This document shows, in pieces, positions 1-50,158 of a stretch of 64,000 bases of DNA. Source of the DNA: an uncultured Gammaproteobacteria bacterium. Its GTDB lineage: Bacteria > Patescibacteriota > Patescibacteriia > Magasanikbacterales > UBA922. Each line of letters begins with the position of its first letter. Position 1 is the stretch's first letter. The notes under the pieces are model-generated. The model was not told the DNA's origin, made no database searches, and saw only the letters and a program-made list of their open reading frames with translations. Where the stretch lies: the NCBI GenBank assembly GCA_964447765.1, contig CAYUTO010000004.1:22561-86560 (forward strand). Direction: 5' to 3'. The position numbers and the translations under genes were made by a program.

Positions 1-122
1 GGACAAAAACACAATCATCCCGACTACCAAGAGAATAACAAATTGCCGAGTAGTGATCGGCCCCAAAATTTTATCCTCTACTTCAATGAATTGTGGGACT
101 ATAAACTGTTGCACATTCCAAT

Positions 123-200
123 GGTAAAAGGTAAAAGGTAAAAGTAAAAAGAAAATACTCGCATTCACAAATCTTTTGCCTTTTTACTTTTTCGTTTTGC
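123..200. repeat. A/T-rich palindromic element with tandem GTAAAAG arms (family B), copy 1
   Basis: ggtaaaaggtaaaaggtaaaagtaaaaag, spacer aaaatactcgcattcacaaat, then cttttgcctttttactttttcgttttgcc. Spacer and arms align with 8441..8530. Confidence 0.6.
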
Positions 201-206
201 CTTATA

Positions 207-1475
207 TTAGTCCATCTGTCCTAATTTCTTATTTACTTCTGCAATCGCAAGATATTCTTCATACGTCAATTCACCACTCTGCAACACTGCAGTAATCGTT
301 AGATTTTTTTCTACTGCTTCAGTTGTTTTTTCAATATATAATTGAAACAATGGACTGGTTCTCCAGCTATCACGTACTTGTAAGTATAGCAAGTATGACT
401 CGTCTTTCCAACCACTAAACTTTGCAACCACCATCTCACCTGCAGTTTTTGGAACTCGTGAGAGTCTACGAAAATCCAGAATACTGAGAGATGCAGATTC
501 TTCAATAGGACCCATCACTGCAGTAACATCTCTGGTAGGTGCAATTTCACGAATAAGTGTCGTAGAATTTGGAATGTGATTGAGTTGTGGTTTTTTCTGT
601 GAGGGAGTAGAAAGTGAAGAACTGAGTGGCGCAGCACTAGGCACCGACGCAGGTCGATGTTGTGGTCGTGGTGCACCGAGTGTAGTAGAATGTGAAATCT
701 CTTCAAATAATTTCATTGCATCCACTTTGGTAAGTCCCAATCCTCCTTCTGACGCGGGTCTCTCTGCATACTGAATAAATTGATACTGATCTCTAATCCC
801 CTTTTTCCATGACAAAATCAACGCATCGGTGCGCGCTTTCAAATCTTTTGGAATTATGACTGAACTAGAGAATGATACCGAAGCAGCCGGAGTATGACTT
901 ACCATCTGTCCTTTTTTTTCACCTATTGCCCGAATCTCAGAATCATCTTCGTCGAGAAGCGACTGGTGATCAGAAGCTTTTCCTCGTGCAGTATCAGCTA
1001 ATTTTGGAGTAATCGGATGCTCAAACACCTTGATTACCGGCGTCGTATTCGTTATATGCGTCTCAGTTTGAACCACAGGAGTGGTTGGTACTACTTTGGG
1101 AGCTACCGATGGTTTTACCATTTCCACCTCTTCTACTAGCGGAATTACACGGCGAGGAGGCTGTGATACTACAGGCTTAGGTGCCTGTGCCATCGGACGC
1201 GCAACTTCCTCTTCTTCAACCAGAGGAATCACTCTGCGCGCAGACTGTTTTAGATCAGATTCAATATTTATCGATTTTTGATTAGTATTTCGAGTCTCTA
1301 ACACCTGAGCAGGTGTTACTTCTTGCTTTTGAGATTCCCTTTGTTCGTTGTTCTTTGTTCGTTGTTCATTGTTCGCCTGTTTTCTTTTTCGAAATTCCTG
1401 AAGAGTAATACGCTCAGTCGTACCATCAGCTTTTTTCACGAGAATCGTAGGTTGTGGTTTCTGTGTATCTGCCAT
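207..1475 (-). CDS. Hypothetical protein (422 aa), Pro/Glu-rich, with an internal duplicated RRVIPLVEE motif; last gene of a three-gene operon
   Basis: Long uninterrupted ORF that abuts the upstream gene; no recognisable catalytic motif. Internal tandem peptide repeat ARRVIPLVEEEEVARP.../PRRVIPLVEEVEMVKP.... Confidence 0.5.
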   Translation of the reverse strand: MADTQKPQPTILVKKADGTTERITLQEFRKRKQANNEQRTKNNEQRESQKQEVTPAQVLETRNTNQKSINIESDLKQSARRVIPLVEEEEVARPMAQAPKPVVSQPPRRVIPLVEEVEMVKPSVAPKVVPTTPVVQTETHITNTTPVIKVFEHPITPKLADTARGKASDHQSLLDEDDSEIRAIGEKKGQMVSHTPAASVSFSSSVIIPKDLKARTDALILSWKKGIRDQYQFIQYAERPASEGGLGLTKVDAMKLFEEISHSTTLGAPRPQHRPASVPSAAPLSSSLSTPSQKKPQLNHIPNSTTLIREIAPTRDVTAVMGPIEESASLSILDFRRLSRVPKTAGEMVVAKFSGWKDESYLLYLQVRDSWRTSPLFQLYIEKTTEAVEKNLTITAVLQSGELTYEEYLAIAEVNKKLGQMD

Positions 1476-1483
1476 AGTACAAA

Positions 1484-2458
1484 CTATTCTTCATTAAGTA
1501 ATTCATCATTCCACACAAATTTTTCCAAATTTTCATCGTAATAATAGAGGTCAAGAATACGAGAATCGTTGTACTCCTCTGAATAATTCTGGAGAATGTC
1601 AAAAACTTCTGCTTCATCTACCATTTTCCCACTCGAAAGATCATCTTGTATTTTATTTTTAATCTCAACAAAATAATTGGTACTAATTTCTGGTTCCGAT
1701 TCCTGTTCTTGTTCTACCTCTCTATCAATTTCCGCATTTTGAATAGTATCACTCGATTGAGATTCTGAAGCTGCTATCGCCATTTTATCAGCATTCAAAG
1801 CCTCTTCAACCAGTCCATAAATATACTCTGGCTTAACACCAATAAGAAAATGAACAAATGAGAAAAATGTGGCAACCGATTCTCGTTTATCAATATCCAA
1901 ACGATCGATATATGCAGGATCAGGTAGTTCTGAAAAAAATATAGTTTCCAATTTTGCCTTGAATTCAGCGACCTCAAGCGAAGGATTATTCATTTGATTG
2001 AGACGTACAATTTCTTGCACAATACTCCGTACTGTCTGAGGTTGATTTTTATATGACCCTACTACCACCTCTGATTCAAATACTGCTTTTCGTATACGAC
2101 CATATTCGGTAATAGCATCAGTCTTATCAGGAAAGCGAAGCCCAAGATACCACAGAGTCTCATCAATCGGTTCAAATTTGAGAATACAAGCCATTACGAG
2201 TTGTTTAGCAAACACATGATTTACCACATCATCAGCATACAACACCCGCACCCGATCACACGCTAATTCAGTAAAAAACCGATACTCCCTCCACCAATAG
2301 CGGTGTATAGTTTCATTCGTTGCATCCTTAAAATTCGCATACAACAATCTCCATAACCCATCTTTGCCAGCAGGATCAAGCATAATCTCCCGAAGTCGCT
2401 CTTCAGTGGTTTTAAAATCATCTTCTTGGAAGATTGTATTTTTCTGAATGGATCGCAT
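1484..2458 (-). CDS. Hypothetical acidic soluble protein (324 aa)
   Basis: ORF tightly packed between the large membrane-protein gene (stop 2462) and the gene at 207..1475. A YADD tetrapeptide is present, but no other reverse-transcriptase motifs. Confidence 0.5.
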   Translation of the reverse strand: MRSIQKNTIFQEDDFKTTEERLREIMLDPAGKDGLWRLLYANFKDATNETIHRYWWREYRFFTELACDRVRVLYADDVVNHVFAKQLVMACILKFEPIDETLWYLGLRFPDKTDAITEYGRIRKAVFESEVVVGSYKNQPQTVRSIVQEIVRLNQMNNPSLEVAEFKAKLETIFFSELPDPAYIDRLDIDKRESVATFFSFVHFLIGVKPEYIYGLVEEALNADKMAIAASESQSSDTIQNAEIDREVEQEQESEPEISTNYFVEIKNKIQDDLSSGKMVDEAEVFDILQNYSEEYNDSRILDLYYYDENLEKFVWNDELLNEE

Positions 2459-2461
2459 ATT

Positions 2462-5400
2462 CTAAGGAATATTCAAAGCTTGAAGTTGCTGATTTAAAAC
2501 TGGGTCATTAGATTGGCGCACCACATCCCTTACATTTGTAACAAAATCCCTCATAGCAATAGAAATTGAATTAAAACCATCTGTTTTCATCGTATTTTGC
2601 ATCTGCTCAAGCGCAGCAAGATACGACCTAATATTATTTGAAGTAACAGAGGCACTATTCCAAGAAGCATGTACAGATTTCATTTTGTCATTTGACATTG
2701 CCCGACCATCCATATTGCGATAAAATTCAGCAATAGAGGGTAATTCATGATCGGAAAAACCATTCATCACCATCTTTCCTGTAGCGTCACGCCTAAGATC
2801 AGCATAACCAGAAATACTATCTGCACTAGAACGAGACGCGAACCAAGCAGTAAGTGTAGGATCGTTATTAGCAACAGAACGCCACTTATACTTCATCTTA
2901 CCAGTAGCCACATCTTCATCAGCATCAATAAGTCCGAGACCACTCGAATCACCCTTCATTGCAGCACTCTTAAGAGCACCTGAAAGGTCTTTAAGAGCCG
3001 ACTGGCGCTGATTATCATCAGTATACATATCATTAAATCGTTGTATTAATACCTTAACAAGCTCCTCTTCACGCTGATCATTGTTCAAAGCTGGAAATTG
3101 TTGTGCCACTTGCTGTCTCAAATCATTAACAACTGCATTATCTAAACCAGTGTGCATCTGTAATCTAACTAATAAACGATTTTTAGCATTGAACTCCTGG
3201 ACACCAAGCTCGTCCATTGCACTAACCTTGGTATCACGCACTGTATCTCCATCTGCTTTTGCAACAAGAGTAGAAAATGCATTTTTCTGTTGTCTTAATT
3301 TAGTTAATTTTTCTGTCTCAGATTGGGAGACAGAACCCCCCGCTCGAATCACTTGTGCCTGTCTAGCTTCCTCATTACTTATTTGTCTAATGAGATATTT
3401 CTCCAATACTTTTTTATCATCATATTGCACATCACCAAACGATTCAGTCAATTTTTTTTCTTTTTCCGCAGCAGCTTTTCTGAGAATTGCCTCAGCTCGA
3501 GGATGATCACCTTGACTTTCATAAACCTGAGCACGTTGCTGTGCTGTCGCGTCGATCTGATCAAGTTCTAGCATTCCTTTAACACTTTCTAATTCTGCCT
3601 TCGCTTTTAATGAGGCTGTGAGTCCCCCAGATGCTAATAATTTCGCAATTTCTCCTAAAAGCAAAATTTCTTTCTCTGAATTTCTCGTATCCTCGATATC
3701 CTTCATCCGAGCCTTACTTTCAGCAATAATACCCTCTCTCTGTCCAAAAGCATAGGATGTTCTCGCTAATCGAGCCTCTGTTTCAGCAGCCCCTTGATCC
3801 AACTGAGCCTTATTTGAACCTTTCACATTTTCCAATTTCTTTTCTGCTGTGGTAGCAAGTTCATTGTACTTCTGGTACTCATCTCTCTCTGCAATGTCTT
3901 TTGTTAAATCTTCATCCCCCACAGCAGCAGCACGTTCTGCAGCAGTAATTGGTCTAAGCAATTCTTCAATTCTTTTCTCTTCATGATAATGATGATCACC
4001 TGCAACTTTTTGCTCAATTTGTTCCGTAATTGGCTTAAGTGTTGCCAATCTTTCTCGTATCTTATGAAATTCATCACTACCTTTATCACGATGCTCCTCC
4101 AAATCATCAGTCTTTTTTGCGATAGCCTGTTTCTCCTCAGTTTTTACAAGTTCCTCAAGATCATGACTTTTTGCTTTGGCACCAGCCAAAACCTTTCTAG
4201 ATTCTGTAAAAGACTTGTCACCTTTCTCCTGCAACCTAAGCCACTCTTCAGCCATTTTTTGTGGCCCCTTCGCAGATTTTGCTTTTTCTGCCTCATCAGC
4301 TTTTACACGTGCTGTTAATTTAATTTCACCACCCTTTGATCGACTTGTTGAAATCTTTGCCTCATGTTCTCGATCAGCCGCTGCTGCAATCTCCGACCAA
4401 TTTTCAGCTCGAGCATCCTTTCGTTTGTCAGACTCAAATATACTGCCATAAAGAGTTTTAGCTGCCCACCACCCAACTTTTCCTGCAACACCCTTTGCCT
4501 CTTCTTGTTTTTTCTCCATATCCTGTATCCTCTCATCACGACGCTGACCACTCTTTGTCTTGAGTGTTTTATACATACCAGCAATTTTTTCACCTTTTCT
4601 CGCCAACGACTTACCACCAATAATAGGGAAATCTGATTTCACTTTATCTACTGCACCACCTACGAGCCATCTACCTGCAGCATATCCCGTCGCGATAGTC
4701 GCTACATTCTTGGTAAAATCAATTGCACCACCCACGAGCCCCGCTCCTGTGGCCCCAGTCTCCTCAGTCTTCTTGATACCTACCCACAAAAAACCAATTC
4801 CAAGAAGGAAACTAGCAAAATTCTCCCAGGTAGAGATTTCAAGTACGGTGACTGATTGTTTCTCACCAGAAGAATTCAATTGAATTACATTCGGACCACT
4901 CTGAATTTCAGAGATAATCTGCCCAGTACCTAGCGTTGCAAATGCCAACCACAAGAAAAAAACCATGATTGGAGCAACAATCACATGCTTACTAAACTCA
5001 CTCCACCATTCAGTAGCATACTTCTCTCCCTTGGGAATCGCGTACAACATGAAAGCAAGAGGTGAGAGAACGATCAATGCCCACAAAACCACGATACGGA
5101 AAATCATGACGACCATGTACGCACCAATGGTGAGCGCTGCCAGAAGAGCAAATATAAAGGCAAGCACAGCTCCAGCAAAGAGTGTGAGACTAGCTACCTC
5201 CCGAGTAGCACCGAGCTCACTCGGAGAATTCTGAGCAAGCTCAAGAATCTTATCCATCTGAAACAAGGTAATCAGATTACCGCCCGCAGTTGCAGAAACT
5301 GCATTGAGGAAGGTAATCGTAAAGATATGAGCAACATCAATCACGAGCTGAGCTATCAAATTACTAAAATTAATCAAAATTGCCATGAGGACAATCTTTA

Positions 5401-5827
5401 CCAATCCATGTTTCCATTCATAACTCTCAAAACCTAAGATGGTCGCAAATGCAATAACAAGTAGACCAACGATAAAGAACATATTCGCAACATCCCGAAC
5501 CATTACCCACCCGAGCTTCACTACACTCACATCAATAAAATTGTTATAACTCGCAAGTGTAATAAATGCACGCAAGAAAAATATCGTCAAAAATATACAA
5601 AGCTTGGATAGTTCAATAAGAATGGTTGCAATCATATCTACCAGACCATTCAATACAGTCTCAACAACAACTGCTTGACTACTTACAAACCCCACACTCA
5701 ATACAGCAACCAATAACACACCAACGCCAAAAACCGGCCACCAAGTCCGTTTTTTGAGCGTATTCGGAAACAGTTTTGTATACGCTTGGCCGACACGAGC
5801 AGATACCCGTGCAAAAAAGCGCGTCAT
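2462..5827 (-). CDS. Large polytopic membrane protein (1121 aa): N-terminal domain with about 7 TM helices, then a roughly 600-aa K/E-rich coiled-coil region and a C-terminal globular domain; VirB6/TrbL-like topology (tentative)
   Basis: Hydrophobic segments in the first roughly 350 aa. A long charged heptad-like region follows (KADEAEKAKSAKG...EELVKTEEKQAIAKK...). No Walker motifs. Confidence 0.55.
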   Translation of the reverse strand: MTRFFARVSARVGQAYTKLFPNTLKKRTWWPVFGVGVLLVAVLSVGFVSSQAVVVETVLNGLVDMIATILIELSKLCIFLTIFFLRAFITLASYNNFIDVSVVKLGWVMVRDVANMFFIVGLLVIAFATILGFESYEWKHGLVKIVLMAILINFSNLIAQLVIDVAHIFTITFLNAVSATAGGNLITLFQMDKILELAQNSPSELGATREVASLTLFAGAVLAFIFALLAALTIGAYMVVMIFRIVVLWALIVLSPLAFMLYAIPKGEKYATEWWSEFSKHVIVAPIMVFFLWLAFATLGTGQIISEIQSGPNVIQLNSSGEKQSVTVLEISTWENFASFLLGIGFLWVGIKKTEETGATGAGLVGGAIDFTKNVATIATGYAAGRWLVGGAVDKVKSDFPIIGGKSLARKGEKIAGMYKTLKTKSGQRRDERIQDMEKKQEEAKGVAGKVGWWAAKTLYGSIFESDKRKDARAENWSEIAAAADREHEAKISTSRSKGGEIKLTARVKADEAEKAKSAKGPQKMAEEWLRLQEKGDKSFTESRKVLAGAKAKSHDLEELVKTEEKQAIAKKTDDLEEHRDKGSDEFHKIRERLATLKPITEQIEQKVAGDHHYHEEKRIEELLRPITAAERAAAVGDEDLTKDIAERDEYQKYNELATTAEKKLENVKGSNKAQLDQGAAETEARLARTSYAFGQREGIIAESKARMKDIEDTRNSEKEILLLGEIAKLLASGGLTASLKAKAELESVKGMLELDQIDATAQQRAQVYESQGDHPRAEAILRKAAAEKEKKLTESFGDVQYDDKKVLEKYLIRQISNEEARQAQVIRAGGSVSQSETEKLTKLRQQKNAFSTLVAKADGDTVRDTKVSAMDELGVQEFNAKNRLLVRLQMHTGLDNAVVNDLRQQVAQQFPALNNDQREEELVKVLIQRFNDMYTDDNQRQSALKDLSGALKSAAMKGDSSGLGLIDADEDVATGKMKYKWRSVANNDPTLTAWFASRSSADSISGYADLRRDATGKMVMNGFSDHELPSIAEFYRNMDGRAMSNDKMKSVHASWNSASVTSNNIRSYLAALEQMQNTMKTDGFNSISIAMRDFVTNVRDVVRQSNDPVLNQQLQALNIP

Positions 5828-5864: not shown

Positions 5865-5900
5865 ACCATAAATAAAAACCACACGCTATAAAAACGTGTG
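5865..5900 (-). terminator. Hairpin cacacg/cgtgtg followed by a U-rich tail on the minus strand, downstream of the rsmB-like gene
   Basis: Inverted repeat ccacacgctataaaaacgtgtg with tttttatttatgg on the minus-strand side. Confidence 0.5.
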
Positions 5901-42780: not shown

Positions 42781-44826
42781 TCAGAGTTCATCCAATGACT
42801 TCAAAAAACTTCGAACCGGCTTATTACTATCATCTGCCTCATAGGTAATATCATCAACATCATCACTCGGATCAGAAAACACGAGCGTACTCGATCCCTG
42901 ACTTCGCTCATGAAGAATAAGACTCCGATCAATCTCTTCGATAAATCTACTCGGTCCCTGAAGGACGCTAAATGAACTCGCGAGCAATGGATATGAGAGG
43001 TATAAAAACTTTTTTGCACGAGTAATTGCAACATAGAATAATCGCCTCTCTTCTTCGACACCATCCACTTCCCTCATCGATCGCTCACTCGGAAATTGAC
43101 CAGCAGAAACATGGAGGATAAATACAGCTTCCCACTCCAGTCCTTTGGCTTGGTGAATAGTAGAAAGTACAATTTTTTCAGTATCTTCTTCTGCATTTTT
43201 TGCAACTTTACCCGAATAACTCTCCTGCAAACTTGCTTCAGCAAGAAATTCTGATAATCGTGATTCTCCAGATTCTGTAATATATTGATCCGCAAATAAG
43301 GCAAGTTGTTCAATATCTTGTAATCGTTCACGATAATCTGGATATTCTGCTTCCAGATAGTCTTTGTAGGGCGAAGCCAAAATTCCACGAATCATTTCTC
43401 CAGGACCCCGAGTCTCAGACGCAATAACTTCATTCCAAATTCGAATAAACTCTCCCCAACCCAATTGTCCACGTACAGAAAGAATACTACCTACATGGTC
43501 AATTGGGTCGTTCGGTGCCAGTCCACGAACCATATCAATAACTTTTTCAGCACCCGACGGACCAATACCAGTCTGCATGGTAAGTACCCGCATCCACGCA
43601 ATAGAGTCTCCTCGGTTCGCAAATATACGCAAATATGCGAGTGTGTCCTTCACGTGTGCGCGTTCAAAAAATCGCACACCTCCACGGTAGTCATAAGGAA
43701 TTTGTCTCCGTGTAAGTTCAATTTCAAGTGATTGTGAATGGAATGCCGCACGAAATAACACAGCGATTTCAGACAGCGGAACTCCCTCTTCTGATAATTC
43801 AAGAATTCGGTCGGCGATAAATCGAGCTTCTTCAAATGCATCGACAAATGCATGTACTTCGGGCTTGGTAAAACTCTCCCGGATACTTCGCAATTCTTTT
43901 TTATACTGTTTTTTATTCTGTGCAATTACTTCATTAGCAACTCCGAGAATATCTGGAGTGGAGCGATAATTCGTTTCAAGTCGAAAAATTTTTGCATCGG
44001 TGTGTGTATGTTCGAAATCAAGAATGTTCGTTATATCAGCAGCACGGAATGAATAAATGCTCTGAGCATCATCCCCCACTACCAATAGGTTCTGATGAAC
44101 AATAGCAAAAAACCGAATAATAGACGCCTGAATCTTATTCGTATCCTGATACTCGTCTACTAAAATATACTGAAACTGTGTTGCGTATTTTTTTCGCACC
44201 TGTTCTGATGATGAAAGTAATAAAAATAAATTCACCAGTAAATCATCAAAATCCATGACATTGCTTTCTCGCTTTCTTCTGCCATAATCTTCTGCAATGC
44301 GGGATAATGCATCAGCAAAATCTACCCACTGTGGATGTTTTTCGAGGAGCACGTCCCCGACCGTGCGCTCTGCATTTCGTGCAAAACTTAAGAGTGATGC
44401 AACCACTGCTGGTGACGGAAATTTTTTATGTGATCGCTGCACCCCTTCACTCCCAATACAAAGTTTGATCATGTCACGCGCATCTTCTGAATCAAGAATA
44501 TTAAACGTATTTGCATAACCAAGTAATGGCGCATACTGTTTGAGTATGCGATACGCAATATGATGGAATGTTCCAGACCACGGTAATTTCACTCCACCCT
44601 CTGTAAACGATTCGACGCGATGAAGCATTTCTCGTGCAGCTTTATTGGTAAAAGTGAGCAACAAAATTGAAGAAGGATCAATACCCTTCTCCAATAAATA
44701 TGCAACTCGATAGGTAATTGCGCGTGTCTTCCCACTCCCGGCTCCCGCAAGTACAAGACACGGTCCATCACCATGCAACACGACATCCAGTTGTTCTGTA
44801 TTTAATTCTTTTTGAAAATCGATCAT
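42781..44826 (-). CDS. pcrA: ATP-dependent DNA helicase, UvrD/PcrA/Rep family
   Basis: N-terminal LNTEQLDVV...LVLAGAGSGKTRAITYRVAYLL (Walker A), DEYQDTN (motif II), and a C-terminal UvrD-like region. Confidence 0.85.
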   Translation of the reverse strand: MIDFQKELNTEQLDVVLHGDGPCLVLAGAGSGKTRAITYRVAYLLEKGIDPSSILLLTFTNKAAREMLHRVESFTEGGVKLPWSGTFHHIAYRILKQYAPLLGYANTFNILDSEDARDMIKLCIGSEGVQRSHKKFPSPAVVASLLSFARNAERTVGDVLLEKHPQWVDFADALSRIAEDYGRRKRESNVMDFDDLLVNLFLLLSSSEQVRKKYATQFQYILVDEYQDTNKIQASIIRFFAIVHQNLLVVGDDAQSIYSFRAADITNILDFEHTHTDAKIFRLETNYRSTPDILGVANEVIAQNKKQYKKELRSIRESFTKPEVHAFVDAFEEARFIADRILELSEEGVPLSEIAVLFRAAFHSQSLEIELTRRQIPYDYRGGVRFFERAHVKDTLAYLRIFANRGDSIAWMRVLTMQTGIGPSGAEKVIDMVRGLAPNDPIDHVGSILSVRGQLGWGEFIRIWNEVIASETRGPGEMIRGILASPYKDYLEAEYPDYRERLQDIEQLALFADQYITESGESRLSEFLAEASLQESYSGKVAKNAEEDTEKIVLSTIHQAKGLEWEAVFILHVSAGQFPSERSMREVDGVEEERRLFYVAITRAKKFLYLSYPLLASSFSVLQGPSRFIEEIDRSLILHERSQGSSTLVFSDPSDDVDDITYEADDSNKPVRSFLKSLDEL

Positions 44827-48829: not shown

Positions 48830-50158
48830 TCAACTCTTATTTTTAGTCACAAACGCATGTACTGCCGGATCAGTCCAGACATGCTCACGTTTGAGCGGAC
48901 GACGAAGATGAAGCCCTTCAAACGTAGTACAGCGAGATAATGCGACATACACCTGGCCAGATACAAAAGTTCCGCTACCAATATCAAGCAATACTCGATC
49001 AAACGTTTTTCCTTGAGCTTTATGAATGGTGACCGCCCATGCAAGCTTCAGCGGATACTGTATAAATGAACCGACTGTTTCTGATTCCACCTGTTTGGTA
49101 GATGGATCAAAATAAAATCGATACATGTCCCAGGTGTACATCCCAATCAATACCTCATCACCTGAATCAAGAGTAACTTTAATCATTTCATCTTCACCTT
49201 CCACTTTAGAAAAACCTTTTACCACACCCATACTTCCATTATGCCATTTTCCCCACGGATCATTATGAAGGACCATCACTCTCGCACCAATTTTTAATTT
49301 GAGTTCAGCGTCAGTCGGAAACGCTCCCCGATCAAATTTATGCTCTACTCTACCAGTGAACACACGTTCTTTCTCTTCTAGAGCCTGCAGTTGCCCCTGA
49401 TTCACCGCAGACGCAAGTGCATTGGTCGTCGTGACCCACACACCATCATATGCAGCATGATCAAAATCTTCATCTACACAACGCTGATTGAGTACTTGTA
49501 GTTGTTCGGAAGTAAGTGTCATATCTCGCACTGCATTCAAGAGTGATATAAAATCTGTATCTGTCTGGCGATACATTTTTTCAAGCTCAATTATTTCTAA
49601 TTCAAAAATTTCTTCTTCGAGCATTTTTTTCTGCTTATTTCCCCCACACACATGCGCGGCAAAAAAATACGGAGAATCATATCGTTCAGAAAAAAACTGC
49701 TGTTCGCCTCTCGTGACCACGGGCGGCAATTGATAGAGGTCACCAATCAGAATCATTTGCACGCCACCAAATGGTTTTCGTTTATCTCTACCAGCTTTCC
49801 TGAGGAATATATCAATACAATCAAATAAGTCAGCCCGAACCATAGAAATCTCATCAATGACAATTGCATCCAGTTCGCGATAAATCTTTTTCTGCTCATC
49901 ATCTCCTCGAGGATTCTTAATAGTGTCAGGCGTAGTCTCTGGGGTAAACCCAAAAAAAGAATGAATCGTCTGCCCTTCCACATTCACTGCCGCAACCCCA
50001 GTCGGCGCCAATACTACAATCTTTTTCTTGGTATGATGACGAAAATAAGTAAGCAAAGTTGATTTTCCAGTCCCCGCGCGACCGGTAATAAAAAGATTCG
50101 TATGGGTGTTCTCCATACGATCGAGGGCTTTTTTGAACTGTACATTTTTATCAATCAT
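48830..50158 (-). CDS. PIF1/RecD-like ATP-dependent DNA helicase
   Basis: Walker A GRAGTGKST, motif II DEISMV, and LIGDLYQLPPV, typical of the PIF1 family. Confidence 0.8.
   Translation of the reverse strand: MIDKNVQFKKALDRMENTHTNLFITGRAGTGKSTLLTYFRHHTKKKIVVLAPTGVAAVNVEGQTIHSFFGFTPETTPDTIKNPRGDDEQKKIYRELDAIVIDEISMVRADLFDCIDIFLRKAGRDKRKPFGGVQMILIGDLYQLPPVVTRGEQQFFSERYDSPYFFAAHVCGGNKQKKMLEEEIFELEIIELEKMYRQTDTDFISLLNAVRDMTLTSEQLQVLNQRCVDEDFDHAAYDGVWVTTTNALASAVNQGQLQALEEKERVFTGRVEHKFDRGAFPTDAELKLKIGARVMVLHNDPWGKWHNGSMGVVKGFSKVEGEDEMIKVTLDSGDEVLIGMYTWDMYRFYFDPSTKQVESETVGSFIQYPLKLAWAVTIHKAQGKTFDRVLLDIGSGTFVSGQVYVALSRCTTFEGLHLRRPLKREHVWTDPAVHAFVTKNKS

Follow-up and report, generated by a model that had tools for sequence, protein, structure and literature searches.

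Joint replacement of a VirB6-like tail and its neighbouring gene in a type IV secretion-like operon of Magasanikbacteria

We analyzed three adjacent minus-strand genes at the left end of a 64,000-nucleotide stretch of contig CAYUTO010000004.1 (assembly GCA_964447765.1, positions 22,561 to 86,560), hereafter called the window, which comes from an ultrasmall bacterium of the Patescibacteria (Magasanikbacteria). In related genomes these genes are followed by components of a type IV secretion system (T4SS). The C-terminal tail of the first gene product and most of the second (denoted p2) constitute a single hypervariable cassette, which has been swapped as a unit between operons that are otherwise nearly identical. 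The open reading frames (ORFs) are separated by 3 and 8 nt, and the following features define the locus:

2462..5827, minus strand: gene 1, extended VirB6-like protein, 1121 residues
1484..2458, minus strand: gene 2 (p2), acidic soluble protein, 324 residues (from the ORF list, isoelectric point and charge, and hydropathy)
207..1475, minus strand: gene 3 (p3), soluble protein of 'beads-on-a-string' type, 422 residues
1..168, minus strand: 5' end of prgI, 56 codons with a GTG start, PrgI/VirB3-like, gene 4 of the operon (from its translation)
5880..5900, minus strand: terminator-like hairpin and T-run, 8-bp stem with 4 G-C pairs, tail GTTTTTATTT

The hairpin (5900..5880) lies between an upstream gene for an RsmB/F-like methyltransferase and gene 1, and likely marks the start of a transcription unit headed by gene 1. 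A first-pass annotation, made from the letters of the window, had proposed co-transcription of the three genes; the shared strand, the two short gaps and the upstream hairpin are consistent with this. The same annotation had seen no further T4SS genes in the vicinity, which does not hold: the 56 residues encoded at 168..1 are identical to the N-terminus of a 161-residue PrgI-like protein in the closest relative (locus L002 of our set), and that orthologue matches Pfam PF12666 (PrgI) with an E value of 6.4e-9. The apparent isolation of the triad is an edge artefact, because the window ends 56 codons into prgI.

We next compared 85 loci, including 80 that were fetched with a profile of the gene 1 N-terminal domain; their ORFs were searched by phmmer and with iterated hidden Markov models (HMMs). 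Of the candidates scored, 612 were homologous to gene 1 at E ≤ 1e-3, and those carrying names came from Candidatus Magasanikbacteria and from metagenome-assembled genomes of other Patescibacteria. The operon encodes, on one strand, the extended VirB6 protein, p2, p3, PrgI/VirB3, a TraC/TrsD-like protein, the VirB4 ATPase and a seventh protein, p7; order and strand were constant in every sufficiently long locus. The individual genes were recovered at 67 (p3), 64 (PrgI), 63 (TraC-like), 61 (VirB4), 58 (p2) and 42 (p7) of the loci, and most of the missing ones correspond to contig ends. More than 60 related Magasanikbacteria loci contain the triad together with PrgI, the TraC/TrsD-like protein, VirB4 and the small membrane protein in this order and on one strand. 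Conservation and co-localization of the triad, which the first-pass annotation had proposed as a check, were thus found in the survey.

Three loci (L002, L003 and L005) illustrate the arrangement. Their triads lead into PrgI (PF12666), a TraC-like protein of ~230 residues (PF26593) that resembles the N-terminal domain of VirB4, and a VirB4 ATPase of ~620 residues with DUF87, AAA_10 and P-loop_TraG domains, the L002 orthologue matching P-loop_TraG (9e-29), DUF87 and AAA_10. The synteny upstream of these triads agrees with the window. No relaxase or VirD4 domain was found among the genes within ~10 kb, and no VirB2-like pilin array inside the seven-gene core, of these three loci. The clusters hold a TrsD-like gene and a PrgI-type VirB3 gene beside virB4 and no gene for a relaxase or type IV coupling protein (T4CP), the arrangement of the MPF-FATA-like systems of the Patescibacteria clade. 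A 2025 survey relates the T4SSs of Patescibacteria to the monoderm MPF-FATA class and notes that they usually lack a relaxase or a T4CP in the vicinity (Quinonero-Coronel et al. 2025, PMC12102498).

Gene 7 (L002:8898-9473 and its orthologues) encodes a protein of ~190-210 residues with an N-terminal hydrophobic segment and without a Pfam match; by size and layout, p7 is a candidate for a VirB8/PrgL-like component. In the 2025 survey, a component of this kind was detected almost only in class ABY1 (PMC12102498). Directly after the cluster in L002 (9572-10279) lies a ComF-like gene with a double zinc ribbon and a phosphoribosyltransferase domain. The corresponding position is occupied in L005 (19941-20651) by a protein with a weak Pribosyltran match and in L003 (19290-20033) by one with a weak DZR_2 match only. 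The position of comF in L002 and L005 agrees with the published ABY1 T4SS loci, which the survey describes as adjoining comF and other competence genes (PMC12102498); a comF gene is accordingly expected beyond the left edge of the window.

The protein encoded by gene 1 can be divided into three parts, which differ in predicted structure and in conservation:

4634..5827, minus strand: polytopic membrane domain of VirB6/TrbL fold, codons 1-398
3593..4633, minus strand: charged helical linker, codons ~399-745, with Ala, Lys and Glu at ~13% each (from composition, AlphaFold2 and identity profiles)
2465..3592, minus strand: folded C-terminal domain, codons ~746-1121 (~370 residues)

The N-terminal ~400 residues are strongly conserved, with 25 invariant alignment columns. 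Within residues 29-352 they contain 8-9 hydrophobic segments, which are conserved across 71 orthologues and are helical in AlphaFold2 models at a predicted local distance difference test (pLDDT) score of 80-90; two conserved, Gly-rich, membrane-proximal helices follow at residues 362-397. The polytopic core that the first-pass annotation had recognized is confirmed, but its count of about 7 transmembrane (TM) helices in the first 350 residues has to be raised to 8-9 within 352. Pfam PF04610 (TrbL/VirB6) matches 22 of the 71 orthologous N-terminal domains, which are 38-96% identical to the query, with a best E value of 9.5e-7; one homologue (P0106) scores 27.9 bits over residues 135-305, against a gathering score of 25.9. 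The fold of the domain, which comprises at least five TM helices, is similar to that of solved VirB6 structures. The top four PDB matches in Foldseek (probability 0.96-1.00) are chains of entries for the TrwJ/VirB5-TrwI/VirB6 stalk complex of R388, and these chains are 260-272 residues long, which fits TrwI. The best natural structural match, TrwI/VirB6, covers 231 of 261 residues. Co-encoding with the VirB3 and VirB4 partners was seen for PrgI at 64 and for VirB4 at 61 of the 85 loci, the window itself covering only the start of prgI.

On the basis of fold, transitivity through orthologues and linkage to VirB3 and VirB4, we accept the N-terminal domain of gene 1 as a member of the VirB6/TrbL family. 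With ~720 residues of hydrophilic sequence after the last TM helix of its VirB6 core, the protein is of the 'extended VirB6' type, a class defined by large hydrophilic C-proximal domains, with no known role, in addition to a VirB6 core (PMC12857230). The first-pass annotation had made the VirB6/TrbL call, with an extension like that of RvhB6, as a weak one and had thought of an envelope or cell-contact apparatus; the Pfam matches of the orthologues and the synteny support this, and the assignment can now be regarded as well supported. The contrary outcome that it had considered, an N-terminal domain from an unrelated transporter family, did not materialize, the top Foldseek matches being TrwI/VirB6 entries. 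Several other candidate similarities were set aside. Sub-threshold matches of the three proteins to TPR_14, TrbC_Ftype, DUF3492 and AsnRS_N in the Pfam and NCBIfam scans were disregarded. The full gene 1 protein gave no match to PDB sequences, and its full-length profile retrieved only charged helical proteins, CFAP46, a tape measure protein and TolA among them, whose matches reflect biased composition and were rejected as low-complexity. PF19590, which appears in a precomputed listing for some long homologues, was not reproduced in scans of P0024, P0032 and P0018 and was not used.

The linker (roughly residues 400-750) had been described as part of a roughly 600-residue coiled coil. This description could not be upheld. 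AlphaFold2 models the ~350 residues as separate helices of 30-55 residues at a pLDDT of 37-65, and both sequence and length of the linker vary between relatives. In a home-made heptad periodicity test, which is neither COILS nor DeepCoil, the power at period 3.5 exceeded z = 3 in only 5 of ~50 overlapping 56-residue segments, and only one 28-residue segment passed the test for heptad register. The linker is thus not a canonical coiled coil, its heptad signal being patchy. It carries a short conserved motif of the form ..TS...GG..KL.. (window 4300..4420, codons ~470-510) in a region with a pLDDT below 50, and Lys524 is conserved in at least 90% of the 63 homologues of the short form; this could be a linear binding motif.

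The C-terminal globular domain noted in the first pass does exist, but it is far larger than was implied (residues ~750-1121). AlphaFold2 predicts it at a pLDDT above 90 from a modest alignment, with helical repeats at ~750-960 followed by a small alpha/beta part; this and our other models were built on alignments of database proteins. It is the most variable part of the gene 1 protein. A domain of the type seen in the window occurs only in a subfamily of ~950-1270 residues, found at ~25 of the 85 loci, and longer forms (up to 2,164 residues) have other tails; tail length ranges from ~500 to ~1,700 residues among relatives. Structural matches of the domain are to helical-repeat scaffolds only. 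Searches of Pfam, NCBIfam and PDB sequences revealed no recognizable toxin or enzymatic domain at the C-terminus.

Comparison with closely related operons delimited the cassette in two ways:

2236..3632, minus strand: cassette relative to the closest relative, L002, comprising codons ~732-1121 of the VirB6-like gene and codons 1-74 of p2 (from blastn and the identity profile)
1590..4636, minus strand: larger cassette relative to L006, comprising codons ~398-1121 of the VirB6-like gene and codons 1 to ~290 of p2 (from blastn, identity profiles and co-variation)

The flanks of the smaller cassette are 87-89% identical to L002 at the nucleotide level, and over 3632..2236 no nucleotide similarity is detectable; the gene 1 share of this cassette is exactly the confidently folded C-terminal domain. 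Relative to L006, the main flanking alignments are 86-88% identical in nucleotides and the VirB6 N-terminal domain is 93% identical. Similarity to L006 returns at the C-terminal motif of p2 and runs on through p3. Between L006 and L002, the TraC-like proteins are 92-100% identical, as are the VirB4 proteins except for their last 24 residues. Identity falls from >90% to ~15% abruptly and at defined breakpoints, which argues for replacement rather than drift.

In a set of 174 full-length homologues, N-terminal domains were at least 80% identical in 119 pairs, and 76 of these had an effective identity below 25% in the last 350 residues; in one pair N-terminal domains 99% identical were joined to unrelated tails. 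Operons with close backbones fall into two tail/p2 classes, the window, L002, L005 and L008 forming one and L006, L009 and L011 the other. Over 1,128 locus pairs, similarity of the variable part of p2 correlated with tail similarity (Spearman 0.41, or 0.59 with the effect of the N-terminal domain removed) and not with similarity of the N-terminal domain (Spearman -0.03); the presence of the C-terminal domain was likewise associated with p2 type (Fisher p = 4e-6). The locus pairs are not independent and the p values are only indicative. No pair among the 174 proteins had a C-terminal identity above its N-terminal identity, that is, no cassette was common to distant backbones, and no silent copies of tail or p2 cassettes were found elsewhere in the window. 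In this operon, then, the N-terminal part stays constant, the C-terminal part is replaced and the gene downstream varies with it, the VirB6 tail being swapped together with the larger share of p2.

The two downstream proteins had been characterized as an acidic and a Pro/Glu-rich protein without recognizable domains, the latter with a duplicated RRVIPLVEE motif, and our analysis agrees on every point. For p2, the isoelectric point is 4.5 and the net charge -29. Neither protein has a TM segment, the maximal 19-residue hydropathy being 1.21 for p2 and 0.95 for p3. Neither yielded a Pfam or PDB match in single-sequence or profile searches, and none of the three proteins directly matches Pfam or NCBIfam. 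In p2, a variable helical body (residues 1 to ~220) leads through an acidic linker to a C-terminal motif that is constant, ...LYYYDE..F.WN, at codons ~290-324 (window 1487..1591), and reads ...LYYFDE..G.F.WN across the locus set. The protein evolves much faster than p3: identity drops to ~10% across the locus set, and a word-indexed search returned only 8 homologues. A match of the p2 profile (A3 positions 181-288) to SpoIIIAG (PDB 5wc3, E value 0.0027) falls on the acidic low-complexity linker and was rejected as probably compositional.

p3 has a modular organization. A conserved N-terminal beta-hairpin and helix (residues 10-50, motif QPTILVKKADGT.ER.TL) is followed by a disordered Pro-rich linker and a small helical module at residues 205-265 (GGLGL); beyond a further linker comes the C-terminal domain, also helical, at residues 321-422 (DFRRL, KDESYLLYL, W..SPL). 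The model has no assignable fold. The protein contains 7.6% Pro and 8.5% Glu and has exactly two copies of RRVIPLVEE, at residues 80 and 108 (window 1238..1212 and 1154..1128). These copies belong to RR[VA]IPL[VI]EE repeats of the Pro-rich linker, of which close relatives have up to three and distant ones none. The p3 family comprises ~2,500 clusters at 50% identity, and the names obtained for distant relatives were Magasanikbacteria only. A short stretch of the p3 linker (1235..1372, codons ~35-80) that includes the NNEQRTKNNEQRESQKQE insertion finds no counterpart at the nucleotide level in L002, which is otherwise 89% identical; this gives the operon a second variable site, of small size. 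In several long-tail relatives, p2 and p3 are separated by ~1-1.6 kb (L028:15943-17558, L017:17134-18137, L024:8387-9361 and L026:8708-9681), which suggests that an extra gene has been inserted there in some of these lineages.

We consider it probable that the triad is the promoter-proximal part of a seven-gene T4SS-like operon, in which the tail of gene 1 and the body of p2 form an exchangeable 'specificity module'. According to this model, the VirB6 domain would build the translocon in the membrane together with VirB3 and the motor protein VirB4, as happens in the conjugative T4SSs of monoderms, and the tail of gene 1 would emerge on the cytoplasmic side. There, its helical-repeat C-terminal domain would bind the variable p2 body, and the specificity module would be tied to the invariant machine by p3, which is constant and modular, and by the equally constant C-terminal motif of p2. 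The module would set what the machine recruits or engages, and may replace a coupling protein and a relaxase, neither of which is encoded in the vicinity. A cytoplasmic tail, with eight TM helices and both termini inside, is favoured because the segment after the last TM helix is rich in Lys and Arg and because p2 has no export signal; averaged over the family, ~7 Lys/Arg residues precede the first TM helix and ~13 lie in residues 351-430, the 80 residues after the last one.

Several observations weigh against this model. The gene 1 protein of the window has no TrbL match itself, either as the full protein at E ≤ 1 or as residues 1-430 at E ≤ 0.01, and a profile of the 71 N-terminal domains finds no VirB6 protein in the PDB. 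The Foldseek E values are weak (~0.04). Because there is no direct HMM match, VirB6 membership depends on fold, on transitivity via orthologues and on synteny. The topology of the tail can be read in two ways, as a count of nine TM helices puts it outside the cell, and the 'outside' loop at residues 131-144 is likewise rich in Lys and Arg. Since the tail and p2 adjoin each other in the DNA, one recombination tract, instead of a physical interaction, could account for their co-variation; the roles of p2 and p3 and the contact between the C-terminal domain and p2 are ones that we infer.

Other explanations would account for parts of the data. The C-terminal domain could be polymorphic cargo that is held in the cytoplasm by p2, acting as chaperone, adaptor or immunity protein, and is then cleaved and sent through the T4SS into a host or competitor. 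A conserved N-terminal delivery part, a C-terminal part replaced wholesale and a co-varying gene immediately downstream are what such a system would show, as are a soluble, acidic p2 with a variable body and a constant, docking-like C-terminal motif, and the lack of a relaxase or coupling protein nearby; cleavage and translocation of extended VirB6 C-termini have been proposed earlier (PMC3556328). With 324 residues, p2 is however large for an immunity protein, neither a cleavage site nor a toxin domain was identified, and the 174 proteins contain no cassette common to distant backbones, nor the window any silent cassettes. We regard cargo delivery as unlikely. The same doubt applies to the wider proposal that the tail and p2 are a horizontally exchanged cargo/adaptor or effector/immunity module built into an essential T4SS channel subunit, with p3 as a constant scaffold. 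If it were true, the C-terminal domain presented by the machine would differ from strain to strain and would either be released into the bacterial host or engage it; extended VirB6 tails would gain a concrete role, and epibionts from the Candidate Phyla Radiation (CPR) a strain-level determinant of host specificity. Alternatively, the tail might be surface-exposed, as an adhesin or antigenically variable contact structure whose variability stems from host range or from phage or immune pressure. The conserved channel domain with its hypervariable C-terminal region would fit, a count of nine TM helices is possible, and Patescibacteria are epibionts whose T4SS is thought to work at the host interface. 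Exposure at the surface has been proposed for rickettsial extended VirB6 proteins, and Anaplasma and other Rickettsiales offer a precedent both for it and for C-terminal regions that vary between strains (PMC3556328). By the positive-inside rule, however, the Lys/Arg-rich segment after the last TM helix directs the tail to the cytoplasm, where the co-varying p2, lacking signal peptide and TM segment, should also reside. The C-terminus of VirB6 from A. tumefaciens is cytoplasmic as well, and we judge an exposed tail to be quite improbable.

A neutral explanation, in which the tail and p2 are weakly constrained spacers shaped by relaxed selection and occasional illegitimate recombination and only the VirB6 domain and p3 are functional, could draw on the low complexity and poor prediction of the linker (Ala, Lys and Glu ~13% each), on the ~500 to ~1,700-residue range of tail lengths and on the 8 homologues that the word-indexed search returned for p2. 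It is very unlikely in view of a C-terminal domain predicted at a pLDDT above 90 from a modest alignment, of the retention of p2, complete with its conserved C-terminal motif, in an unchanged position at 58 of 85 loci, and of sharp breakpoints (>90% to ~15%) in reading frames that are intact throughout. Finally, an N-terminal domain that is an unrelated transporter or permease, merely situated beside T4SS genes, would explain why the protein of the window has no direct TrbL match in Pfam. We give this hardly any credence: TrwI/VirB6 is the top structural match over 231 of 261 residues, the four best Foldseek matches are R388 stalk entries, 22 of 71 orthologues match TrbL and the linkage to VirB3 and VirB4 is invariant.

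As judged from gene content, the operon would belong to the T4SS of the Patescibacteria clade, a known kind. Shared with it are a chromosomal cluster of VirB6, VirB3/PrgI, a TrsD/TraC-like protein and VirB4, the lack of a relaxase or coupling protein within ~10 kb in the relatives compared here, and the ComF-like gene after the cluster. The difference lies in the parts described: the published survey confines its annotation to components for which profiles exist, and p2, p3, the Magasanikbacteria VirB6 tail and the cassette behaviour of tail and p2 appear not to be covered in the sections consulted (PMC12102498). The cassette and the two unannotated components are therefore new details of a known system. 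With TrwI/VirB6 of R388 (PDB 7O3V and 8RT9), gene 1 shares the top Foldseek chains and, through its orthologues, PF04610; identity is however only 11-14% without a direct HMM match, and TrwI has no ~720-residue hydrophilic tail. Unlike the R388 system, the machine described here operates in a monoderm without VirB5, VirB7, VirB9 and VirB10 partners.

The nearest parallel lies in Anaplasma, in the C-terminal region of VirB6-3 and VirB6-4, which varies between strains. Rickettsiales proteins of the extended VirB6 type (RvhB6 as well as VirB6-3 and VirB6-4 of Anaplasma) likewise combine a core of at least 8 predicted TM helices with a large hydrophilic C-terminal extension, which is the most strain-variable part of their T4SS (PMC3556328, PMC12857230). 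In VirB6-3 and VirB6-4, variation arises by tandem repeats and without a co-varying partner gene (PMC3556328), whereas here whole domains are replaced: N-terminal domains 80-99% identical carry unrelated tails, and the downstream gene changes too. The host also differs, being a monoderm free-living or epibiotic CPR bacterium and not a diderm intracellular pathogen, and no homology between the tails was detected. The constant N-terminal delivery part, the replaced C-terminal part and the co-varying neighbour are further reminiscent of CdiA-CT/CdiI in contact-dependent growth inhibition (CDI), of Rhs proteins, of LXG proteins of type VII secretion and of effector-adaptor pairs of type VI secretion. 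In contrast to these polymorphic toxin cassettes, an integral subunit of the channel serves as the carrier here, its large partner gene ends in a constant C-terminal motif, and no toxin domain is recognizable. The likeness is architectural only.

Patescibacteria, which need host cells, account for a substantial part of the diversity of bacteria; to our knowledge, one species of Patescibacteria is genetically tractable. In a Saccharibacterium, epibiotic growth requires the T4SS (Wang et al. 2023, PMC10633639). The T4SS of Magasanikbacteria, as described here, has two conserved unannotated components and a long-tailed channel subunit whose tail is replaced as a unit with the adjacent gene. A hypervariable module within a strongly conserved machine is the pattern expected at an interface of host specificity or conflict. 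The cassette marks specific domains as candidates for host recognition or cargo selection and bears on the role of 'extended VirB6' tails in general.

From the ORFs of the window and synteny with relatives, the neighbours of the operon are core housekeeping genes (AsnRS, RecO, RuvX, methionine aminopeptidase, adenylate kinase and SecY); a Pfam scan added UvrD, Tgt, QueA and RF-1/2, and GC content is ~41% across the whole window. The operon is chromosomal, fixed in position and characteristic of Magasanikbacteria (Patescibacteria/CPR, class ABY1). Many contigs that carry it (L006, L008, L009, L012, L020 and others) are titled 'uncultured Gammaproteobacteria bacterium'; these titles look like a pipeline default or error, as gene content and synteny match Patescibacteria. 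A PIF1-like helicase (48830..50158, minus strand) and a UvrD-type helicase (42781..44826, minus strand), both amid housekeeping genes and unrelated to the T4SS, were the only DNA-processing enzymes noted near the operon within the window.

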